This document shows positions 2,790 to 28,102 of a DNA stretch of 32,000 nt, piece after piece; position 1 is the first letter of the stretch, and every line of letters begins with the position of its first letter. The position numbers and the translations under genes are program-made. Under the pieces are notes generated by a model that was not told the origin of the DNA, searched no databases, and worked only from the letters and a program-made list of their open reading frames with translations. Source of the stretch: an uncultured Chloroflexia bacterium (GTDB lineage Bacteria > Chloroflexota > Anaerolineae > Anaerolineales > Anaerolineaceae); NCBI GenBank assembly GCA_963704755.1, contig OY969938.1, positions 3,300,001 through 3,332,000 of the forward strand. The letters run 5' to 3'.

Positions 2790-3506
2790 TTACCGGGTTT
2801 TGAGCCGGTACTTTGAAAAATAAATAGTTACTTTCAGAATATGTTTTTCCTGCATGCTTTCGAGTTCGCCGACTAATTTCCGGAATGGATCGGTAAGATT
2901 ATATTTCTGTGCAAAGGCTGCATACCGGGCAATAGAAGCCAGCAAAATATGGGCCAGTTCCGAGGCCGATACTCCAAGATCAATCTGTTCTTTTCCTTTC
3001 ATCAATTCGGTCAAACCGGGGCTATCCGAAAAATCGATCTCGTAGTCGTAATCCGATTGGACCTTATCCAGGCGGATGCCGCGTTGTAATAGAACGTCTG
3101 CCAGCAGGACTTCAAAGTCGTAGGCGATGATCAGGGCCTGGGCCCGGCAGACTCTTTGCAGCTCTTCGACCAGCGCGCTGGATTTGGCATAGAACAACGA
3201 GCCCGTAAACGTCACTCCGTCGACGGATCGATCCGGTACAGGCAGATCATCCGCGACGCCTGGCAGGTAGGTGATCTTTTCGTGCGGCGCGGCTTTTTGC
3301 AGCATAGGTTGGCTCGGATCGATGCCAAACACGTGGCGGCAATATTTAGAAAGGGCGATCGCCGAATACCCCGTCCCGCAGCCCACGTCCAGACCCTGGT
3401 CGAAGGCCTCGTTGCTCGAGAGCACCCGCGTTAAGATTAAAGCGTGTAAGGGAGGCCGGTAGGCTGCGTAGTGAAGGGCCGTGATCTGGTTGTATGGGGT
3501 GGTCAT
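2790..3506 (-). CDS. class I SAM-dependent methyltransferase
   Basis: 238-aa ORF with motif I LDVGCGTGYSAIAL and a downstream acidic loop (FGIDPS). Confidence 0.8.
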   Translation of the reverse strand: MTTPYNQITALHYAAYRPPLHALILTRVLSSNEAFDQGLDVGCGTGYSAIALSKYCRHVFGIDPSQPMLQKAAPHEKITYLPGVADDLPVPDRSVDGVTFTGSLFYAKSSALVEELQRVCRAQALIIAYDFEVLLADVLLQRGIRLDKVQSDYDYEIDFSDSPGLTELMKGKEQIDLGVSASELAHILLASIARYAAFAQKYNLTDPFRKLVGELESMQEKHILKVTIYFSKYRLKTR

Positions 3507-6570: not shown

Positions 6571-7029
6571 ATGGAGTCTGTCTCTTTACCTATGAACTTG
6601 CGGGCAATCACTTTCTATTCAAATCACGGGGAAGACCCGTGTGCCCATTTACGTCTGTGCGGTCCGATGCGACAGTTGGGGATCGAGGTCATCGAAGGTA
6701 AAGAAGGCGGTGAGATTTACCCGGAACGGGCTTCGCTGGGCGATCTGGTTTTTGTTCAACGTGATTTTCCTCGTGAGCTGGAAACGTATGAGGCGGTTAT
6801 CGCCCAGGCTCGGCAGAAAAACAAGAAGGTGGTTTTCGATCTCGACGATCTTCTATTCATGCTTCCAGACGATCATCCGGAGCGAAAAGACCGGGACTAC
6901 GTCGAGTCGCTTCTCCCAATGCTGCAAGCAATGTGCGATGCGGACCTTGTGACGGTATCGACACAAAAAATAAAAGATGCGCTCAATGGGCTCATTAATG
7001 AATGTTGCCGTTTTGCCCAATTTCTTTGA
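6571..7029 (+). pseudogene. N-terminal half of a GT-B glycosyltransferase domain, separated by a frameshift from ORF 6977..9925
   Basis: Ends ...DLVTVSTQKIKDALNGLINECCRFAQFL*. The expected continuation NVAVLPNFFDDSLW is found in the next frame at about 7001. Confidence 0.6.
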
Positions 7030-9925
7030 TGACTCGCTTTGGGAGATGCGAGAGCCTAAAATTAACTCGGATGGGCATTCCCCCCTAATTATCGGCTATA
7101 TGGGTAGCGAATCTCACCAACCCGATATCGAGTTTATTGCCCCGGTGCTGTATCACCTCTTTAGCCTTTTCCCGAAAGAGATCGAGGTTCACTTTTGGGG
7201 GATAAAACCGCCACAAATGCTTGCGGGTTTCTCCCAGGTTAAATGGATACCAGCACATTCATATGAGTATGTAGACTTCGCCCGAGATTTTCAAACCCAT
7301 GACGCAGACATATTCATCGCGCCATTGGTAGATAATCCATTCAATCGTGCTAAGAGCCCGCTCAAATTTTTTGAGTATTCTTCAATTGGCGTTCCAGGGG
7401 TCTATAGCCGTTTAGAGCCCTTTGAGCAGATGATCACCCATGGCCAGGACGGGTTGCTGGCTTCATCTCCCGAAGAATGGCTCGAATGTCTGACTCAATT
7501 GATTCAAAGCCCGGAATTACGATCTCAACTTGCCCACGGCGCTCAAGAAACGATTCGCTCGAAGTGGTTGTTGTCTCAGAATGCTTATCGATGGCGAGAT
7601 GTATATACACAAATAGCTCAACAGCCACCATCCAACGATGTTAACGATGCGCCTCTGGTTGACTTGGTAAAGTCAGTCACGCATCAATATTATGACCTTG
7701 GCATGTATCGAACACAGTATATTCAGCAATTGAGTGAAAAGGACCAACAACTTATTGCCCTTGCGTTCGAATTGGACAAAATCAAGTTAAGTAATTCATG
7801 GAGGATAGCTTTATTAATAAAGAGCCTGTGGGGTAAAGTAATTCCACCGGATACGTCCCGCGCAAAATTGGCGGACTTCTTTCTCCAGCGGATCCATGAT
7901 CGAAATGCGAAACGCGCCCGGAGAAAAAGGAAAGCAGCTTTTGACAGCTTTTTGAATTCGGGCCAGAATATCGTTCAATGCAAAGAAGTTGGTCACCACC
8001 GGGAATCGATTGATATTGTGGTCTGTGTTCATAATGCATTTGACGATGTACGTGCCTATTTAGAATCGGTTGTAACGCATAGCACGGATCCATACTCCAT
8101 AATCATTGTGGATGATGGCAGTATCGAACCCACCAAGGGATACCTCAAAACCTTCGCTGCGAACGAACCCAGGTGCGGGCTGATTCGGAACGACGAGGCA
8201 AAAGGATACACATTAGCAGCCAATATAGGCATGCATGCTTCTCTATCTCCGTTTGTTATTTTGTTGAATAGTGACACGATCGTTGGCCCAGAATGGCTCG
8301 ATCGGATGTATCGCGCCATTACGGTTGATGAAAAAATTGGCATTGTCGGGCCCCTGGCGAATACTGCGTCCTGGCAATCGATACCGGTTTTAAGCAGCGA
8401 TGGCGATTGGGCGATCAACACGTTACCCCCAAACCAGACCCCGGCAGATATGAGCAGGTTGATCGCCAAATATTCTGCCTGCATATTGCCTCAGGTACCG
8501 TTGATAAATGGCTTTTGCCTGATGATTCGTAAAACACTTATTGATGAAATTGGCTATTTCGATGAAGAGAATTTTGGGCAAGGGTACGGCGAAGAGGACG
8601 ATTTTACCCTGCGGGCCGGCAAAGCGGGATGGAAAAAAGTCATCGCAGATGATGTTTACATCTTTCATGCGCAGTCAAAGAGTTATTCCAATAGCAGAAG
8701 GTACGTCCTTTCCAGGCAAAGTGGGGAGAAACTGCGCAACAAACATGGCATCGACCTGATTGCCAACAGCGTAGCGTTCATGAATCCCAACCGGGTCATG
8801 GATGGAATCCGAAGCCGGGCAAACATTATGGTAGCCAGGGAAGAGACTCTCGAAAGAGGCCGGGGGGCCTTCTCCGGCAAGCGTCTCCTGATCATCCTGC
8901 CCGTGATCGATGCCGGCGGGGGAGCAAACGTAATTATCGATGAAGCCAGGTATATGCTCCAAATGGGCGTGGATGTCAGGATATTTAATCTGTCGAATTA
9001 TAAAGCGGGCTTTTTGGAAAACTACCCACATTTGGATATCCCCACTATTTTTGGAGGCGTAAACGAATTACCAAAAATCGCATCCGATTTTAATGCAGTG
9101 GTTGCTTCAGCAAATTATTCGGTGGAATGGCTCTTACCTATCCAAAAACTCGATGTGGTCCCAACGCTTGGATACTACGTACAGGGTTACGAACCGCTAA
9201 TGTACCCGGATGGCTCTGAACAGGCCAGAGACGCTCAGGCGAGCTACACCCTCATTGAGGGCTGTAAACTTTTTACAAAGACTGAATGGAATCGCAGGAT
9301 GGTTTTTGATCACACCGGAGCCAGATCGGATGTGGTGGGTATTAGTGTCAATATCGATTTATTCCGTCCTCGTGACATGGTTCCGTTAGGAGAAAGACCT
9401 GTCCGAATTGTAGCTATGGTCCGCCCAGGCTCTCCATATCGCAATCCAATAATGACCATGTCCATTCTCAAAGAAATTGAAAAAAAATATGGTAAAGACG
9501 TCGATATCTGGATTTTTGGGGCGGATGATGTCCGCGATATGGCCAATCAACAATACCTGGACTTCAACTGGAGGCAACTGGGGAAGTTAACCCAACACCA
9601 GGTTGCTTCTGTCATGAGTAAAGCGGATATTTTCACGGACTTTTCTACCCACCAGGCCATGGGGTTGACTGCGTTGGAGGCTATGGCGGCGGGATGCTCA
9701 GTCATCGTTCCAAAAATGGGCGGGGCGGTTGAATTCGTTCACAATCGAGAAAATGGAATCGTGGTCGATACTTCCAACGTTAAAGAAAGCTTACAGGCAT
9801 TAGAAGAGCTGGTGGAAGATGATAATTTGCGCAAGGAATTACAGATCGAGGGTATCAAAGATGTCGTTCAATATTTTCCGGAGAGAGTCAGCTATAACAT
9901 TTTAAAAACTCTCTTTACGTCTTAA
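6977..9925 (+). CDS. multidomain glycosyltransferase (rest of GT-B domain, coiled-coil linker, GT2 domain, C-terminal GT4-like domain)
   Basis: GT2 block IDIVVCVHNAFDDV..IIIVDDGS..LLNSDT..YGEEDDF at roughly 8000-8720. C-terminal GT-B block QAMGLTALEAMAAGCSVIVPKMGGAVEFVHNRENGIVVD. Heptad-like linker around aa 240-300. Confidence 0.8.
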   Translation: MRSMGSLMNVAVLPNFFDDSLWEMREPKINSDGHSPLIIGYMGSESHQPDIEFIAPVLYHLFSLFPKEIEVHFWGIKPPQMLAGFSQVKWIPAHSYEYVDFARDFQTHDADIFIAPLVDNPFNRAKSPLKFFEYSSIGVPGVYSRLEPFEQMITHGQDGLLASSPEEWLECLTQLIQSPELRSQLAHGAQETIRSKWLLSQNAYRWRDVYTQIAQQPPSNDVNDAPLVDLVKSVTHQYYDLGMYRTQYIQQLSEKDQQLIALAFELDKIKLSNSWRIALLIKSLWGKVIPPDTSRAKLADFFLQRIHDRNAKRARRKRKAAFDSFLNSGQNIVQCKEVGHHRESIDIVVCVHNAFDDVRAYLESVVTHSTDPYSIIIVDDGSIEPTKGYLKTFAANEPRCGLIRNDEAKGYTLAANIGMHASLSPFVILLNSDTIVGPEWLDRMYRAITVDEKIGIVGPLANTASWQSIPVLSSDGDWAINTLPPNQTPADMSRLIAKYSACILPQVPLINGFCLMIRKTLIDEIGYFDEENFGQGYGEEDDFTLRAGKAGWKKVIADDVYIFHAQSKSYSNSRRYVLSRQSGEKLRNKHGIDLIANSVAFMNPNRVMDGIRSRANIMVAREETLERGRGAFSGKRLLIILPVIDAGGGANVIIDEARYMLQMGVDVRIFNLSNYKAGFLENYPHLDIPTIFGGVNELPKIASDFNAVVASANYSVEWLLPIQKLDVVPTLGYYVQGYEPLMYPDGSEQARDAQASYTLIEGCKLFTKTEWNRRMVFDHTGARSDVVGISVNIDLFRPRDMVPLGERPVRIVAMVRPGSPYRNPIMTMSILKEIEKKYGKDVDIWIFGADDVRDMANQQYLDFNWRQLGKLTQHQVASVMSKADIFTDFSTHQAMGLTALEAMAAGCSVIVPKMGGAVEFVHNRENGIVVDTSNVKESLQALEELVEDDNLRKELQIEGIKDVVQYFPERVSYNILKTLFTS

Positions 9926-9945
9926 AGGAAATATTTTAAAATACC

Positions 9946-10057
9946 GTAACTATTCAGGCTCCTGTTAAGAAGTTACCGAATATGAGGTGCGTGCGGGGGC
10001 AGCGCCCCCGCACGCACCTCATATTCGGATTTCTTCCCCGCCAGGCTGAGCAGTTAC
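9946..10057. mobile_element. 112-nt foldback MITE-like element, copy 1 (A-end left, B-end right)
   Basis: Termini GTAAC...GTTAC. Perfect 25-bp central stem 9976-10000 / 10004-10028 with loop AGC. Flanked by identical 8-mers AAAATACC (9938-9945 and 10058-10065). Confidence 0.7.
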
Positions 10058-10394
10058 AAAATACCGTCACCCAAACAGGAAAAAATCGAGTAAAGTTGTG
10101 CTATTCACACCTCAAGGTTACTCGAAAAGCCATGCCAGGGGTTGTGGCGCTTTTTCAAAACAAGACAAATTTTATGTCAACGAATTGCTCTGGAAAGCAA
10201 TTCAATAGCCGCTTTTTCGCTGAGATATTCCGGTTTGAGCGCTTTGCACATTGTCCTTAGCCTGTGACATGCCTTTGGTTGGCGAGGGTCTTGATTTTTC
10301 GGCGGTTTTCTGGGTTTGTCCTTATTCCACTGATGGACACAGCAAACAATAATCTCCTAAAAATTATTCAACTTTACACAAACGAGGGATATTA

Positions 10395-11933: not shown

Positions 11934-12257
11934 TTACGGCATAGGCTTGCCGCGGATGCCCGCATCCAGTTCATAGAGGAGCCTGTCCAGGCGGCTTTTC
12001 CCAGCCTGGCGAGTGGGCATCTGCAGCGGGATTGCGCGCACCTCCGCGGGAACGTGTTGGAGCGTCCAGTAGACCTCGCCAGTGGTGATATTCGTATAGC
12101 CGGCTTGCTCGATCTTGAGAGCCAGGGCCGCCAGGGTGACCCCGGCGATGATCTCCATGGGAACCTGCGACCGGTCGATCGGAAGGATTCCGGCCATAAA
12201 GTTAAGGCTGTGGGGCGAATTCTTCTGCACAGCAGGCGTTGCGTTGAAATCCTTCAT
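11934..12257 (-). pseudogene. truncated paralog (C-terminal ~75 aa) of the 13697..14236 gene
   Basis: ...ALALKIEQAGYTNITTGEVYWTLQHVPAEVRAIPLQMPTRQAGKSRLDRLLYELDAGIRG aligns to the C-terminus of the 179-aa protein. The N-terminal 30 aa are unrelated and there is no SD before the ATG. Confidence 0.55.
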
Positions 12258-13387: not shown

Positions 13388-13404
13388 TCAATTATTCCTT
13401 TTTG

Positions 13405-13516
13405 GTAACCTTACAGGCCAGTTCGGGCACGATGTGTGTTTTTGTGGGTTTTCGCGCGGCGAAACCCGTGAAAAGCAACAAAAACACACTACCTTCCAAG
13501 GTGGCTGACCAGTTAC
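13405..13516. mobile_element. 112-nt foldback MITE-like element, copy 2 (A-end left)
   Basis: GTAAC...GTTAC termini. 12-bp stem 13434-13445 / 13478-13489 enclosing a nested GGGTTTTCGC/GCGAAACCC hairpin. Flanking 8-mers CCTTTTTG / CTTTTTTG (7/8). Confidence 0.65.
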
Positions 13517-13696
13517 CTTTTTTGTTTTATTCTCGACAGGGGGGATAGATGGAAATTTCCAATGGGTGATAAACAAATCATCGACTGGATTGTGACACTG
13601 AATGATGCCAAGATTAAATTGTATATATATTGTACCATTTAGGGAAGAAATATCTGTCTGGTACGGGGTTCTAATAATATGCTAATGCCCCCGGCT

Positions 13697-14236
13697 CTAC
13701 ACCTGGCCGCGGATGCCCGCATCCAGTTCATAGAGGAGCCTGTCCAGGCGGCTTTTCCCCGCCGGACGAGCGGGCATGTGCAGCAAGACCTCGCGCGCTT
13801 CGGCGGGGACGTGTGCGATTGCCCAATGGATCTCACGATCGGCGATGTCTGCATCGCCGGCCTGGTCGAGCTCGAGCGCCAGGGCGGCGTAAGCCGCCGG
13901 GCCGAGGATATGCTTGGTCTGGTTGACGTTCGCCAGGGGGTGCGTGTAGGCGGACGAAGCGGCCAGGCCGGCGGCGCGAGCGGCCGCTGAGGCAGCTGGG
14001 TCGCCAGCTTCACGGGCAGCAGCCATGGCTGCCAGGGCCAGGGTGCGCAACTGGGCCGTGCGCTTACCTCCGGCGGCAAACACGCGGATGCCTTCGATCG
14101 CCGCGCGGGGCCGGGTATCGGAACCGGGGTACTTCTCGAACACCGGCAAAGCCCTTTCGGCGCAGTCCGCGGCCCAGCCTCCCAGGGCCTGGAGCGACTC
14201 CATACTCAATGGGAAATATTGGGGCTCATTGCTCAT
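13697..14236 (-). CDS. conserved all-helical protein (family I recall as 'putative immunity protein', often mis-annotated SbcC)
   Basis: 179 aa: WAADCAERALPVFEKYPGSDTRPRAAIEGIRVFAAGGKRTAQLR...AARAAGLAASSAYTHPLA...KHILGPAAYAALA. The functional name comes from memory only. Confidence 0.5.
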   Translation of the reverse strand: MSNEPQYFPLSMESLQALGGWAADCAERALPVFEKYPGSDTRPRAAIEGIRVFAAGGKRTAQLRTLALAAMAAAREAGDPAASAAARAAGLAASSAYTHPLANVNQTKHILGPAAYAALALELDQAGDADIADREIHWAIAHVPAEAREVLLHMPARPAGKSRLDRLLYELDAGIRGQV

Positions 14237-16216: not shown

Positions 16217-16262
16217 GCCGTACGAATTGCCTCACAATTAATCTTACTTTGCGAAATAACGT

Positions 16263-17511
16263 TGGCTCAAAATAAATGTTACCCTAACGCGGAATAAAGC
16301 ACCGCAGAGGGAGCTCATGATGAGTCAACGCAGTCGGCGGGAGATGCTAGAAAGCATTCGTCCGCGCTATTTGAAAGCCAGGAAAGCCGAGAAGAAACAG
16401 ATTCTGGATGAATTTATCGCCACAAGCGGATATCATCGTAAATACGCTATTCGGCTGTTGAAGCATGGTTCCAAGCCAAAGGGGTTGAAGAAAGCCGGGC
16501 GACGGAAGAAATACAACGGGGAAGTCGTCGTGGCTCTGGAAAAGATTTGGGAAGTTAGTGGGTGCATCTGCTCAAAACGACTACAGCCTTTTATTCCTGA
16601 AATGGTGGATGTTTTAGAGCGCTGGCAGGAAATAGAGTTGAGCGAGGAAACCAAAGCGCTTTTGTTGAGCTTGAGCCGGGCCACCATAGATCGCTGTTTG
16701 AAAAAGGCACGCCTCGCCCCCACCCCACGTGGGCTTGGGACTACCAAACCGGGCAGTTTGCTCAAACAAGCCATTCCCATCCGCACCTTTACCCCTTGGG
16801 AGGACGAGAAGCCAGGCTTTCTGGAAATCGACCTGGTGGCCCATTGTGGTACAACCACCGAGGGTACCTACCTCAATACCCTCACTGCAACCGATTTAGC
16901 CACCGGCTGGACCGAGTGCCTGGGCCTGGCCAACAAAACCCAGACAGCTGTCTCTCAAGCCATTGAGGAATTGCGCCATAACCTGCCTTTTCCTCTTTTG
17001 GGATTGGATTCAGACAATGGCAGTGAATTCATCAACGATACACTTTTGCGATACTGCCAGAGCGAACTCATTACCTTTACGCGTTCGCGGCCTTACCACA
17101 AGAATGATCAGGCTCATGTGGAACAGAAGAATTGGTCGGTTGTTCGACATACCATTGGCTATGACCGCTTCGAAACCCCACAAGAACTTGCCTTGCTCAA
17201 ATCCATTTACTCCGATTTGCGTCTTTACATCAATTTTTTCCAGCCAGTTCTCAAACTGATTGCTAAAGAAACCGTTGACGGCAAGACGATCCGTAAGTAT
17301 GATCTGGCCAAGACCCCCTATCGCCGGGTCTTAGCCCAGGACTCTCTTCCCCTGAAAGTCAAGGCCAGTCTTACTGCCCAATATGTTCATCTGAACCCTG
17401 TGTCCTTACAGGCCAGTATCAATAAAAAGGTCAATCAATTGTTAAGAATTCTCCGGTAACATTTCTATTTGAGGCAACGATTATCCCAAAGTAACATTTT
17501 ATTTTGAGGCA
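16263..17511 (+). mobile_element. insertion sequence with a single rve-type DDE transposase
   Basis: Terminal inverted repeats TGGCTCAAAATAAATGTTAC (16263-16282) and GTAACATTTTATTTTGAGGCA (17491-17511). No clear target-site duplication. Family uncertain (ISNCY/IS481-like from memory). Confidence 0.65.
16317..17459 (+). CDS. DDE-type integrase/transposase (rve domain)
   Basis: 380 aa with an N-terminal HTH-like region (ILDEFIATSGYHRKYAIRLL). Candidate catalytic residues are in EIDLVAH, LDSDNGSEF and NDQAHVEQKN. Confidence 0.85.
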   Translation: MMSQRSRREMLESIRPRYLKARKAEKKQILDEFIATSGYHRKYAIRLLKHGSKPKGLKKAGRRKKYNGEVVVALEKIWEVSGCICSKRLQPFIPEMVDVLERWQEIELSEETKALLLSLSRATIDRCLKKARLAPTPRGLGTTKPGSLLKQAIPIRTFTPWEDEKPGFLEIDLVAHCGTTTEGTYLNTLTATDLATGWTECLGLANKTQTAVSQAIEELRHNLPFPLLGLDSDNGSEFINDTLLRYCQSELITFTRSRPYHKNDQAHVEQKNWSVVRHTIGYDRFETPQELALLKSIYSDLRLYINFFQPVLKLIAKETVDGKTIRKYDLAKTPYRRVLAQDSLPLKVKASLTAQYVHLNPVSLQASINKKVNQLLRILR

Positions 17512-17698: not shown

Positions 17699-18330
17699 GG
17701 TTAGTTGTTTTTTTCGTAAAAGTCGCGTCCTAACGGTGCGTTCCGGGCACGCCGGTGTGGGCCAGTGGCCTGGTTATTCAACCATTTCCAGGATGGCAGC
17801 CCTAAAACGCACCCTACGCCGAGGTGGTTTTTAAGAAAATCTTCTTTGCGTCCTCTGCGTCTCAGCGGTGCAATATCTGGCTGCGTATAAGAGCGGCCTC
17901 GGTCTGGAGACCGGGCCGAACGCTTAAGGCGATTTTCCTTGATGAACCATCTTCTCTTTTAAGGTTTTCTCTGTGAACTCCGTGACTCTGTGGTTAGTTG
18001 TTTATTTTTGTAAAAGTCGCGTCCTAACGGTGCGTTCCGGGCACGCCGGTGTGGGCCAGTTGCCTGGTGATTCAACCATTTTCAGGATGGCAGCCCTAAA
18101 ACGCACCCTACGCCGAGGTGCTTTTTAAGAAAATCTTCTCTACGCTCCCCACGCCCTGGCGGGCGGTGCCATGGTCTGCGCCTCAGCGGTGCCAAATCTG
18201 GCCAGCATTGAAGAGCGGCCTCGGCCGACGGTACGGAGGTGAGACCGGGCCGAACGCTTAATACTAAATTTTTTGATGATCCGTTTTTTAAGGTTTCCTC
18301 TGCGTGCTCTGCGTCTCAGCGGTGCAATTC
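17699..18330 (+). repeat. two tandem ~293-nt non-coding repeat units (17699-17991, 17992-~18330)
   Basis: A-segments 17699-17845 and 17992-18139 differ at about 6 of ~148 positions by manual alignment. Each unit also holds a GC-rich B hairpin (17889-17928, 18211-18260). Each unit also carries two copies of a TTTTTAAG...CTCTGCG..CTCAGCGGTG-like motif (four in total, some divergent). Confidence 0.8.
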
Positions 18331-18785: not shown

Positions 18786-18930
18786 CAGTAAAATCGCCGT
18801 TCATCTCCTATTTTGACTGAAAGGAAGCGTGCAGAAAATACAGAAAAATGGAGACTTTCTCTGGTTAAGAACTTCGTATTTACGGGTGAGGAAGCATCCA
18901 TTGAGTAAGAGCCTAAATATAATTTGTTTA

Positions 18931-19042
18931 GTCACTGCTCAGCTATCCAGGGAAGGGGATGTTTTTATTGTTTTTCGCGTGCGAAGCACGCGAAAAACAA
19001 TAAAAACATCCCCTTCTTTCAACTGGCCGAAGTAGTTTTGAC
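18931..19042. mobile_element. 112-nt foldback MITE-like element, copy 3 (B-end left)
   Basis: GTCAC...GTTTTGAC termini. Perfect 31-bp stem 18952-18982 / 18986-19016 with loop GAA. Flanking 8-mers match only 5/8. Confidence 0.6.
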
Positions 19043-19120
19043 ATTGTCAAAGGAAGTCACTCGTCAAAATATTAGAGTTATGCCCATAATAGTAGTAACT
19101 CTAATATCTCGGAGGAGCGT

Positions 19121-19252
19121 ATGTTTGTCGATCGCCGGCAAGAGCTCGATTTTCTCAACAGCGTCCTCACGCGCAGCCGCTCGGGGCCAGCACAACTGGT
19201 GCTGATGTATGTCCGCCGTCACGGCACTGCCTCGCACATCAACCAGCGGTGA
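19121..19252 (+). pseudogene. N-terminal remnant of an AAA ATPase (archaeal-ATPase/DUF234-type)
   Basis: GGAGG SD then MFVDRRQELDFLNSVLTRSRSGPAQLVLMYVRRHGTASHINQR*. It resembles the FVGRE.EL..L......AQL..iyGRRRvGKT N-terminus, but the Walker A is degenerate and a stop follows after 43 aa. Confidence 0.4.
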
Positions 19253-21923: not shown

Positions 21924-22005
21924 CACACATCGTCAGGTGAATAAATTGTCACAATTATAGTCACCGCAGGGTCACTCGCCATCGGTATGCTTTGAATGTT
22001 GGTAA

Positions 22006-22117
22006 GTAACTGTTCAGCCAAATGGGTAAGAATCCTGGATTTGAGGTGTTTGCGGGGGCTTCGCTCCCGCAAACACCTCAAATCCAGGAACTTTTATACA
22101 GGAGCCTGAGAAGTTAC
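22006..22117. mobile_element. 112-nt foldback MITE-like element, copy 4 (B-end left, inverted relative to copy 1)
   Basis: GTAAC...GTTAC termini. 26-bp stem 22034-22059 / 22063-22088 with one G-T pair and loop TTC. Flanking 8-mers GTTGGTAA / ATTGGTAA (7/8). Confidence 0.7.
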
Positions 22118-22148
22118 ATTGGTAATTCATAAATCTTGGAGGCATATA

Positions 22149-27343: not shown

Positions 27344-28102
27344 ATGAATGACAAACCTGTCGCCCTGGTCACCGGGGCAAATCAAGGAATCGGTCTTCAG
27401 ATTGCAAAGGACCTCGCGACACACGGCTTCACAGTGCTCGTCGGGTCACGCAATTTCGAGAAAGGGGAGACAGCCGCGAAGAGCATTGGAGCGTCAGCCC
27501 ACGCCGTGCAGCTCGACGTAACGGATCAGGCTTCAATCACCGCTGCGGCGGAGCGTATCCGCAAGGAGTTTGGCCGCCTCGATGTGCTCGTCAACAACGC
27601 GGCGATCTCGAATACGAATAAGTTACCCCATATGTCTGTCGAGGAGCACGTCAGGTTGTCCCGCCCAAGCAACGTATCCCTCGATGAGGTGCGGGCGATA
27701 TTCGAGACCAACGTATTCGGCGTCCTCGTCGTTACCCAGGCGCTGCTGCCGATCCTGCGCGAAGCGCCGGCAGCCCGCATCGTTAATGTATCCAGTGGTG
27801 CTGGCTCGCTGGCACTAAATGCGGACCCGGCCTACCCCGGGCGTTCGATCTTCGGTCCTGGCTACTCTGCATCCAAGACGGCTCTTAACGCCATGACGCT
27901 CTCTATGGCGATCGAGCTGGAGCCAGAAGGAATCAAGGTCAACGCCGTCTCTCCGGGCTTCATCAAAACCAACCTCAACAACTATGCTGGTACGGGAACT
28001 GTCGAGGAAGGCTCCCGCGAAGTCGTGCGCCTTGTGCTGCTCGGCCGAGACGGCCCGACAGGCACTTTTACGCGCTGGGAAAACGAAACAATCCCGTGGT
28101 GA
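27344..28102 (+). CDS. SDR family oxidoreductase
   Basis: Start at ATG 27344 (AAGGA SD). TGANQGIG cofactor motif, NNAA, and YSASKTAL catalytic motif. Confidence 0.9.
   Translation: MNDKPVALVTGANQGIGLQIAKDLATHGFTVLVGSRNFEKGETAAKSIGASAHAVQLDVTDQASITAAAERIRKEFGRLDVLVNNAAISNTNKLPHMSVEEHVRLSRPSNVSLDEVRAIFETNVFGVLVVTQALLPILREAPAARIVNVSSGAGSLALNADPAYPGRSIFGPGYSASKTALNAMTLSMAIELEPEGIKVNAVSPGFIKTNLNNYAGTGTVEEGSREVVRLVLLGRDGPTGTFTRWENETIPW

Follow-up and report, generated by a model that had tools for sequence, protein, structure and literature searches.

A widespread, apparently undescribed MITE family of Anaerolineae with 14-bp terminal inverted repeats and 8-bp target duplications

Elements of the IS66 family have inverted repeats starting with GTAAGCG (GTAA-type ends) and are flanked by 8-bp repeats (PMC11946415). 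One member of its ISBst12 group, ISDge4 of Deinococcus geothermalis, is present in nine copies and has been observed to transpose (PMC12898284). It encodes a single transposase of 449 aa, its terminal inverted repeats (TIRs) are 14 nt long (GTGACTACTCAGCA / GTAACTGCTCAGCA), and its direct repeat is 8 bp (CCTCGATG) (PMC12898284). Here we analysed a 32,000-nt stretch of an Anaerolineaceae genome (contig OY969938.1; the window), in which an initial annotation had described four foldback elements as an uncharacterised MITE family. Our analysis indicated that this family is real, widespread, of a well-known kind and apparently undescribed. We found neither a Chloroflexota MITE nor one derived from IS66 described in the searchable literature.

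Four copies of the element in the window

The four intergenic elements, each of 112 nt, were re-read at the positions given in Table 1, just as the initial annotation had placed them. It had also proposed that each of them folds into one long hairpin, and folding indeed gave a very stable hairpin for all four (minimum free energy −45 to −77 kcal/mol; z −3.7 to −12 versus dinucleotide shuffles). The inner arms were 23–31 nt long and 87–100% complementary, with loops of 3–10 nt. When the four copies were oriented and aligned, they had common ends (GTAACTnnTCAGGC... and ...GGCTGAnCAGTTAC) and different centres. The two ends of an element could be told apart, with GTAACT(A/T)(T/C)TCAGGC at one side versus GTAACTG(C/T)TCAGCC at the other. 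The polarity described earlier was therefore real: copies 1 and 2 run A to B, copies 3 and 4 run B to A, and the same polarity recurred in 14 by-catch copies. The ORFs crossing the copies were only mechanical ones running through them (18924–19205 and others), indicating that the elements are non-coding.

Table 1. Positions of the four copies, their ends, inner arms and flanking duplications in the window
Feature	Position	Strand	Sequence	Remark
MITE copy 1	9946..10057	+		A->B; 112 nt
Copy 1 A-end TIR	9946-9959		GTAACTATTCAGGC	
Copy 1 B-end TIR	10044-10057		GGCTGAGCAGTTAC	
Copy 1 inner palindrome	9976-10000 / 10004-10028			perfect, 25 bp (25/25)
Copy 1 left TSD	9938-9945		AAAATACC	
Copy 1 right TSD	10058-10065		AAAATACC	identical to left TSD, 8/8
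MITE copy 2	13405..13516	+		A->B; 112 nt
Copy 2 A-end TIR	13405-13418		GTAACCTTACAGGC	2 mismatches vs consensus
Copy 2 B-end TIR	13503-13516		GGCTGACCAGTTAC	
Copy 2 inner arms	13434-13456 / 13467-13489			87% complementary (20/23)
Copy 2 left TSD	13397-13404		CCTTTTTG	7/8 vs 13517-13524
Copy 2 right TSD	13517-13524		CTTTTTTG	
MITE copy 3, decayed	18931..19042	-		B->A on + strand; 112 nt
Copy 3 B-end	18931-18944		GTCACTGCTCAGCT	
Copy 3 A-end	about 19026-19042		GCCGAAGTAGTTTTGAC	
Copy 3 inner palindrome	18952-18982 / 18986-19016			perfect, 31 bp (31/31)
MITE copy 4	22006..22117	-		B->A on + strand; 112 nt
Copy 4 B-end TIR	22006-22019		GTAACTGTTCAGCC	
Copy 4 A-end TIR	22104-22117		GCCTGAGAAGTTAC	
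Copy 4 inner arms	22033-22059 / 22063-22089			96% complementary (26/27)
Copy 4 left TSD	21998-22005		GTTGGTAA	7/8 vs 22118-22125
Copy 4 right TSD	22118-22125		ATTGGTAA	

The flanking 8-mers of copies 1, 2 and 4 read exactly as had been claimed (8/8, 7/8 and 7/8). Copy 3 is a degenerate member of the family, with both tips mutated (GTCAC... and ...GTTTTGAC) and with flanks, TTTGTTTA / ATTGTCAA, that match at only 5/8 positions. Copies 1 and 4 belong to the same interior subfamily and are 75% identical over 112 nt. The 14-mer of the B-end, with up to three mismatches, had 17 matches in the window versus 6.0 ± 2.5 expected. Two of the near-matches, at 27518 and 31267, had been considered as extra copies; they were chance matches in coding sequence and had no partner end, therefore we count four copies in the window.

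Copy 1 starts 20 nt after the stop codon of a glycosyltransferase gene (9925). A T-rich tail follows its hairpin, which was flagged as terminator-like, 54 nt past a gene stop. Copy 2 is located in the degV leader, with a conserved TGGTACAAT box on one side and the ribosome-binding site and start of degV (13387, minus strand) on the other. Copy 4 lies 82 nt after the stop codon of a RibD_C gene (21923) and directly upstream of an ABC ATPase gene. The window also contains an IS of its own (rve ORF, 16317–17459), whose ends were read as TGGCTCAAAATAAATGTTAC / GTAACATTTTATTTTGAGGCA and are unrelated to those of the four copies, as the initial annotation had noted.

Distribution, target duplication and element-free sites

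The pattern GTAACNNNNCAGGC, a gap of 70–100, and then GGCTGANCAGTTAC was run against genomes representing the GTDB species, one for each. At least 112 loci contained the full-element pattern. Among the matches listed (112 loci), about 108 were Chloroflexota MAGs, mostly of Anaerolineae, and all but four were labelled Chloroflexota; the labels included Anaerolineales, Anaerolineaceae, Caldilineaceae, Thermoflexales, Villigracilis and others. Assemblies rich in the element include CP059258.1, JABTUK01, CBDBZO01 and VGOB01. The same pattern gave no match in 2.9 million viral contigs. A further 14 copies were obtained as by-catch and had not been selected by the search pattern.

The listed copies with both flanks were then compared for direct repeats. 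The 8-bp repeats were perfect in 74 of 112 copies and contained one mismatch in 20 of 112, and repeat lengths of 4–7 and 9–12 gave no signal in the same 112 copies. When flank pairs were shuffled, a match of at least 7/8 was reached in about 1% of draws, self-pairs included. Therefore, an 8-bp target-site duplication (TSD) is the rule for this family, which is the signature of a transposase that cuts and inserts with an 8-bp stagger and proves that the elements have transposed. The target octamer had G/C at positions 1 and 8 and A/T at positions 2–7 and at −1/+9, and it was roughly symmetric. Thus, the 8-bp target duplication that the initial annotation had read as the footprint of transposition extends to the further copies listed. 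Many more copies with TSDs were found; the opposite outcome, no further copies and no TSDs, had been named there as an argument against the family.

MITEs usually stay below about 300 bp. The elements are short by this measure and non-coding, share their TIRs, have a constant TSD length and are present at many unrelated loci; they are MITEs by these features. The family is old, has spread through Anaerolineae and has diversified into many interior subfamilies.

Orthologous sites in relatives were also compared. The window's own DegV protein had no exact database record. DegV orthologues with 72–78% amino acid identity were present in four metagenome contigs (L198–L201), and none of these had an element upstream of the gene. 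The promoter-like box TGGTACAAT was kept in three of the four contigs, indicating that copy 2 was placed between the box and the degV ribosome-binding site. Another relative (L282) had the same gene order, namely ABC2 permease, ABC ATPase, glycosyltransferase and a 462-aa protein, and its glycosyltransferase was 74% identical to that of the window. The spacer after the glycosyltransferase gene was 106 nt in this relative, without an element, versus 469 nt in the window with copy 1, and the two spacers were still recognisably alike next to the stop codon and ahead of the following start codon. The L282 relative had its own copy of 173 nt elsewhere, with a perfect TSD; the Logan contig breaks inside that copy. 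Since the relatives stand at 72–78% protein identity and their spacers contain other indels, the comparison reports absence of the element at orthologous sites and not clean junctions. These element-free spacers exclude vertical conservation of the copies across relatives of this distance, which are not at strain level. The same sequence at every orthologous locus, the second outcome named earlier as speaking against insertion, was thus not what the relatives had.

Conserved ends and palindromic interiors

The information content of the aligned elements was about 2 bits at the fixed positions through position 14 and about 0 from position 15, at both ends. Therefore, the conserved module is a 14-bp TIR, GTAACTRYTCAGSC. 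GTAAC was present at both tips in three of the four window copies and throughout the retrieved ones, the search pattern itself having demanded GTAAC. Across the family, an IRL-like end, GTAACT(A/G)(C/T)TCAGGC, could be distinguished from an IRR-like end, GTAACTG(C/T)TCAGCC. The ...CAGGC end tended to have ACTAC or ACTAT, and the ...CAGCC end had ACTGC. In the 14 by-catch copies, the two ends again differed at position 13 (G or C) and tended to differ at position 7 (A or G).

The interiors of 116 elements (115 pattern matches and copy 3 of the window) formed 32 clusters without mutual similarity. Copies 1 and 4 were part of a 15-member cluster that is common to several Anaerolineales MAGs; the interiors of copies 2 and 3 were singletons. 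The length of the pattern matches ranged from 98 to 128 nt, which are the bounds of the search pattern. By-catch copies were 109–168 nt long and the L282 copy, as given above, 173 nt. A search for TIR pairs 250–4500 bp apart in the loci gave composite non-coding elements of 260 and 444 nt, also with TSDs. The fixed length of 112 nt that the initial annotation had ascribed to the family was hence a property of the four window copies only, the family covering 98–173 nt and the composites being longer. The modal length was nevertheless 112 nt (31 of the 115 copies listed), and it was found in 8 of the 32 interior clusters, with the next commonest length in 4. Simple MITE biology gives no account of this recurrence across unrelated clusters. 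Shared ancestry or a length optimum may lie behind the 112-nt mode.

To describe how the arms of the hairpin vary, the subfamily of copies 1 and 4 was analysed as an alignment of stem cells. Base pairs were formed in 94.8% of the cells, a value reached in 0 of 500 shuffles. Double changes were found in 18 of 24 inner-stem pairs (43 cells) versus 4–5 wobble cells, and these double changes were often of the transversion type, almost without G-U intermediates. Such changes point to a DNA palindrome in which each arm can serve as template for the other, and not to a selected RNA. We infer that arm complementarity is kept by template switching or hairpin-templated repair, not by selection on RNA. 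In this process, quasi-palindrome template switching or hairpin-templated correction at replication would restore the interior palindrome. Quasi-palindrome template switching is a mechanism established in E. coli genetics.

The most unusual traits of the family are the 14 bp per end kept class-wide, the turnover of interiors with palindromes kept, and the recurrent length of 112 nt. A stronger reading of these traits is a class-wide system in which the pair of 14-bp ends takes up or rebuilds perfect palindromic interiors time and again, with a preferred unit length of 112 nt, so that the elements are not ordinary deletion derivatives of an IS; we consider this reading unlikely. An ISBst12-type transposase or another Anaerolineae enzyme may act on the fold-back or cruciform, with the hairpin joining the two ends. 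If this fold-back reading were true, hairpin structure and length would be cis-requirements for transposition, and the elements would serve as a minimal substrate of the IS66-family mechanism, which is still uncharacterised.

Candidate transposase, alternative readings and known repeats

A text search of the literature for the TIR string returned only the ISDge4 paper (PMC12898284). The B-end of the family, GTAACTGCTCAGCC, was identical to the ISDge4 end GTAACTGCTCAGCA at 13 of 14 positions, ISDge4 being represented by the TIRs printed in that one paper. The two systems are alike in having 14-nt TIRs (GTAACT(A/G)YTCAGGC / GTAACTGYTCAGCC in the MITE) and an 8-bp target duplication, and both show the same difference between their ends at position 7 (ACTAC vs ACTGC). 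In contrast to the MITE, which is about 112 nt long and non-coding, ISDge4 is autonomous, coding and about 1.4–1.6 kb long. Positions 13–14 are CA in ISDge4 and GC or CC in the MITE ends, and the host belongs to Deinococcota there and to Chloroflexota here.

The canonical IS66 motif GTAAGCG was not found at the MITE ends, which read GTAACT(A/G); ISDge4 departs from GTAAGCG too. The canonical three-ORF elements (ISCro1, ISEc8; tnpA-tnpB-tnpC) share the GTAA start and the 8-bp TSD with the MITE. They differ from it in their IRs, GTAAGCG... of 16–20+ bp versus GTAACTR... of 14 bp, and in being coding and 2.5–3.4 kb long. As a control, 31 IS66 elements were collected from IMG/VR and phage loci. 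The terminus was GTAAGCG in 23 of them, GTAAACG in 5, and GTAAAAG, GTAACCG or GTAACGC in the rest; the GTAACTRYTCAG terminus was on none of these 31 canonical elements. All 31, as well as three IS66 elements in phage records, had 8-bp TSDs, a check that is partly circular since GT(A/G)A termini and flanks matching at 6/8 or better had been the selection criteria for the control candidates. The IS66 link, which the initial annotation had offered with reserve, thus gained support from the GTAA-type ends and the 8-bp TSD, and above all because the ends of an ISBst12-group member of IS66 match at 13/14 positions.

Searches for a cognate enzyme covered several data sets. TIR-pair searches of the 112 listed loci and the window, about 0.75 Mb of Anaerolineae DNA, did not yield an autonomous element bounded by these TIRs. 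In the same DNA, no IS66-type transposase (TnpC-type DDE enzyme, Pfam PF03050) was detected by tblastn with ISCro1 TnpC (a query 100% identical to a database entry) or by a profile HMM over 6,405 ORFs. Among 160 IS66-bearing viral loci there was no autonomous partner, and IMG/VR gave only three-ORF IS66 elements with GTAAGCG-type ends. The tblastn search of plasmids and phages and the IS66 profile search of a protein database were dominated by enterobacterial IS66/TnpC and likewise gave no autonomous partner. As no cognate transposase was found, we propose from the ends and the TSD that an ISBst12-type enzyme may mobilise the element in Anaerolineae.

In the mechanism we propose, a DDE transposase supplied in trans would bind both 14-bp ends, and the element would be inserted at staggered cuts 8 bp apart, repair of the stagger giving the 8-bp duplication. 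The target is rich in A/T, with G/C as the first and last base of the octamer. The likeliest enzyme would be a single-ORF IS66-family transposase of the ISBst12 group, like that of ISDge4. Overall, we consider it probable that the element is a non-autonomous DNA transposon (MITE) with 14-bp TIRs that is moved in trans, likely by an ISBst12-type enzyme.

A transposase outside IS66/ISBst12 could move the MITE instead, be it of the IS1595, ISL3, IS256 or IS6 type or an undescribed or domesticated Anaerolineae enzyme. That about 0.75 Mb of MITE-bearing DNA yielded no IS66-type transposase may leave room for such an enzyme or for a single-copy domesticated mobiliser, and the lack of the canonical GTAAGCG terminus at the MITE ends points the same way. 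We nevertheless regard a mobiliser of this kind as unlikely: identity to ISDge4 at 13 of 14 bases by chance is negligible, and the agreement extends to TIR length, TSD length and the difference between IRL and IRR at position 7. The usual termini of other families with 8-bp duplications (GGCTCTT..., GGTTCTG... and GGGG...; ISfinder) are unlike GTAACT.

Two further readings were weighed. According to one, the copies are structured elements selected by the host, which spread or persist because of a function and not as selfish transposons, such as an RNA terminator, a stabiliser, an sRNA or a REP/BIME-like protein-binding palindrome, for which one could cite the very stable hairpins, the strong covariation of pairs and the terminator-like hairpin and T-rich tail of copy 1. 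This is very unlikely, since 84% of the listed copies have 8-bp TSDs with at most one mismatch, the interior changes completely between genomes, and wobbles are rare next to double changes, a pattern that a DNA palindrome would give and an RNA would not; a GTAG/CGTC head as in REP is also missing. The genomic setting argues in the same direction. Of the 115 copies listed, 91 were clear of any ORF of at least 120 aa, and the neighbouring genes could be tandem, convergent or divergent; where the pair was tandem, 23 copies were oriented with and 19 against the genes, indicating no bias. The window copies had no Rfam match at the gathering score, which ruled out a known structured RNA family, and the sub-threshold matches were to miRNA-precursor hairpin models on both strands, as any long hairpin would give. 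According to the other reading, the copies are targets of site-specific recombination, of the integron attC type or another, at the borders of gene cassettes; in its favour, the copies have short conserved ends around a variable, imperfect palindrome, a length close to that of attC, and AAC...GTT in the ends. Integron attC sites share one orientation and form cassette arrays beside intI. We give this next to no probability. The copies occur in both orientations, 3–5.5 kb apart between ordinary housekeeping-type genes and with no integrase nearby; their right end, GTTACNN, does not fit GTTRRRY (R''/R' cores RYYYAAC...GTTRRRY); and 8-bp flanking duplications are not a product of site-specific recombination. 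The TSDs, the mixed orientation and the end sequence rule out integron attC sites.

We return to the reading as a MITE. Since the copies are mostly intergenic, in all gene arrangements, show no orientation bias, have no Rfam match and form a DNA-type palindrome, those in the window look like selfish, passive spacer insertions. The hairpin of copy 1, just past the glycosyltransferase gene, could terminate or stabilise a transcript incidentally. Other effects on neighbouring genes, including that of the copy 2 hairpin in the degV leader, would presumably be incidental as well.

These results define, for annotation and assembly, a mobile repeat that is present in high copy number in Anaerolineae, a class both widespread and little cultured. 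Its copies give rise to spurious ORFs and place hairpins within 5' leaders and at 3' ends, and at least one contig (L284) ends within a copy. To judge from the searchable literature, no earlier MITE has been linked to the IS66/ISBst12 lineage. The cis-requirement is narrowed to 14 bp per end and an 8-bp staggered, symmetric, AT-rich target, which offers an entry to the poorly understood transposition of IS66. Copies with many differences that are still perfectly complementary provide a natural data set for quasi-palindrome correction.

REP/BIME elements with their RAYT (IS200/IS605-like TnpA) resemble the family in being abundant intergenic palindromes with compensatory stem changes. REPs are 20–40 bp long, have a GTAG or CGTC head, are not known to make a TSD, and are linked to a RAYT gene (PMC3733652). 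The MITE differs from them in its length of about 112 nt, GTAAC at both ends and 8-bp TSDs, and these features ruled out a RAYT-associated REP/BIME. The window ORFs scanned included no Y1 transposase. Described bacterial MITEs (Correia/NEMIS, ERIC/MITEEc1, RUP, MITEPsy1, Nezha and MITECca01) are likewise small, non-coding and able to form hairpins; they have TIRs and a TSD of fixed length, and they are intergenic, multi-copy and dependent on a transposase in trans. The Anaerolineae family differs from these MITEs in three respects: no more than 14 bp per end are kept throughout an entire bacterial class; unrelated near-perfect palindromes take the place of the interior (32 clusters in 116 elements); and the TIR points to the IS66/ISBst12 lineage.

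Genes and repeats neighbouring the MITE copies

The glycosyltransferase gene whose stop codon precedes MITE copy 1 has a frameshift near 6993-7001 that divides it in two. The first 141 residues of a 1136-aa orthologue aligned to frame 1 (6571-6993), and the remainder aligned to frame 2 (7001-9922); the start of P0121, the 979-aa glycosyltransferase recorded in the database for the source genome, falls downstream of the frameshift. The split gene is either a pseudogene or the result of a sequencing error. Further along the window, two copies of a 215-nt direct repeat (75% identity) lie within two ORFs, which look like paralogous immunity-type genes on either side of degV and MITE copy 2.

The window also contains an IS with an rve-domain transposase. 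Its left end is TGGCTCAAAATAAATGTTAC and its right end is GTAACATTTTATTTTGAGGCA, of which an additional partial copy was found. The ends of the MITE are unrelated to those of this IS. Another repeat family, also unrelated to the MITE, adjoins the IS at 17700-18330 and includes a 143-nt pair and shorter common blocks, two of which are tabulated below.

Coordinates of genes and repeats in the window
Feature	Position	Strand	Remark
Glycosyltransferase gene	6571-9925		
215-nt direct repeat	11946-12160 and 13703-13917		
ORF holding the first 215-nt copy	11934-12257	minus	
ORF holding the second 215-nt copy	13697-14236	minus	Imm5-like
IS	about 16240-17511		
Transposase ORF of the IS	16317-17459		rve domain
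Right end of the IS	17491-17511		
Partial copy of the right end	17457-17477		
143-nt repeat pair	17708-17850 and 18002-18144		94% identity
Shorter common block	17844-17874 and 18298-18328		CTYTGCGTSCTCTGCGTCTCAGCGGTGCAAT
Shorter common block	17907-17953 and 18241-18287		

Target sites and copies in other genomes

Sites reconstructed for 94 copies gave a roughly symmetric target profile, with W at positions -1, 2-7 and 9, S at positions 1 and 8, and additional AT-rich positions at about -6/-5 and +13/+14. Among the matches listed, four were on contigs without a Chloroflexota label: L089, from the Moorella sp. UBA4076 MAG, had a perfect 8-bp TSD, and the flanks matched at 6/8 positions in L041 (Treponema), 4/8 in L058 (Phycisphaerae) and 5/8 in L095 (Burkholderiaceae). 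Horizontal transfer or mis-binning of the contigs could account for these matches, as could chance in the weaker cases.

In a relative of the source organism (L282), a 173-nt family member with the perfect TSD GAGCCATC was found at 3104-3276. A Logan contig of the same locus (L284, 1-82) terminates inside this element, which shows that MITE repeats break short-read assemblies.

Element length and interior sequence

When the elements of the pattern-scan loci (L001-L112) and the window were grouped by interior sequence, a length of exactly 112 nt occurred in 8 of the 32 clusters among the matches listed, and the runner-up length occurred in 4. The 14-bp ends were the sole sequence common to these eight clusters. 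The recurrent length could derive from a common 112-nt ancestor followed by fast interior turnover, or it could represent a length optimum.

A palindromic module, TGTCATT(C/G)CGAG...CTCG(C/A)AATGACA, recurred in many MITE interiors of other genomes (L084 6442-6701, L001 197-640, L018, L003 and others). The module was also nested or in tandem within longer elements of 260 nt and 444 nt, which had the same ends as the MITE and were accompanied by TSDs, suggesting that other palindromic repeats are captured by the MITE ends or become nested between them.
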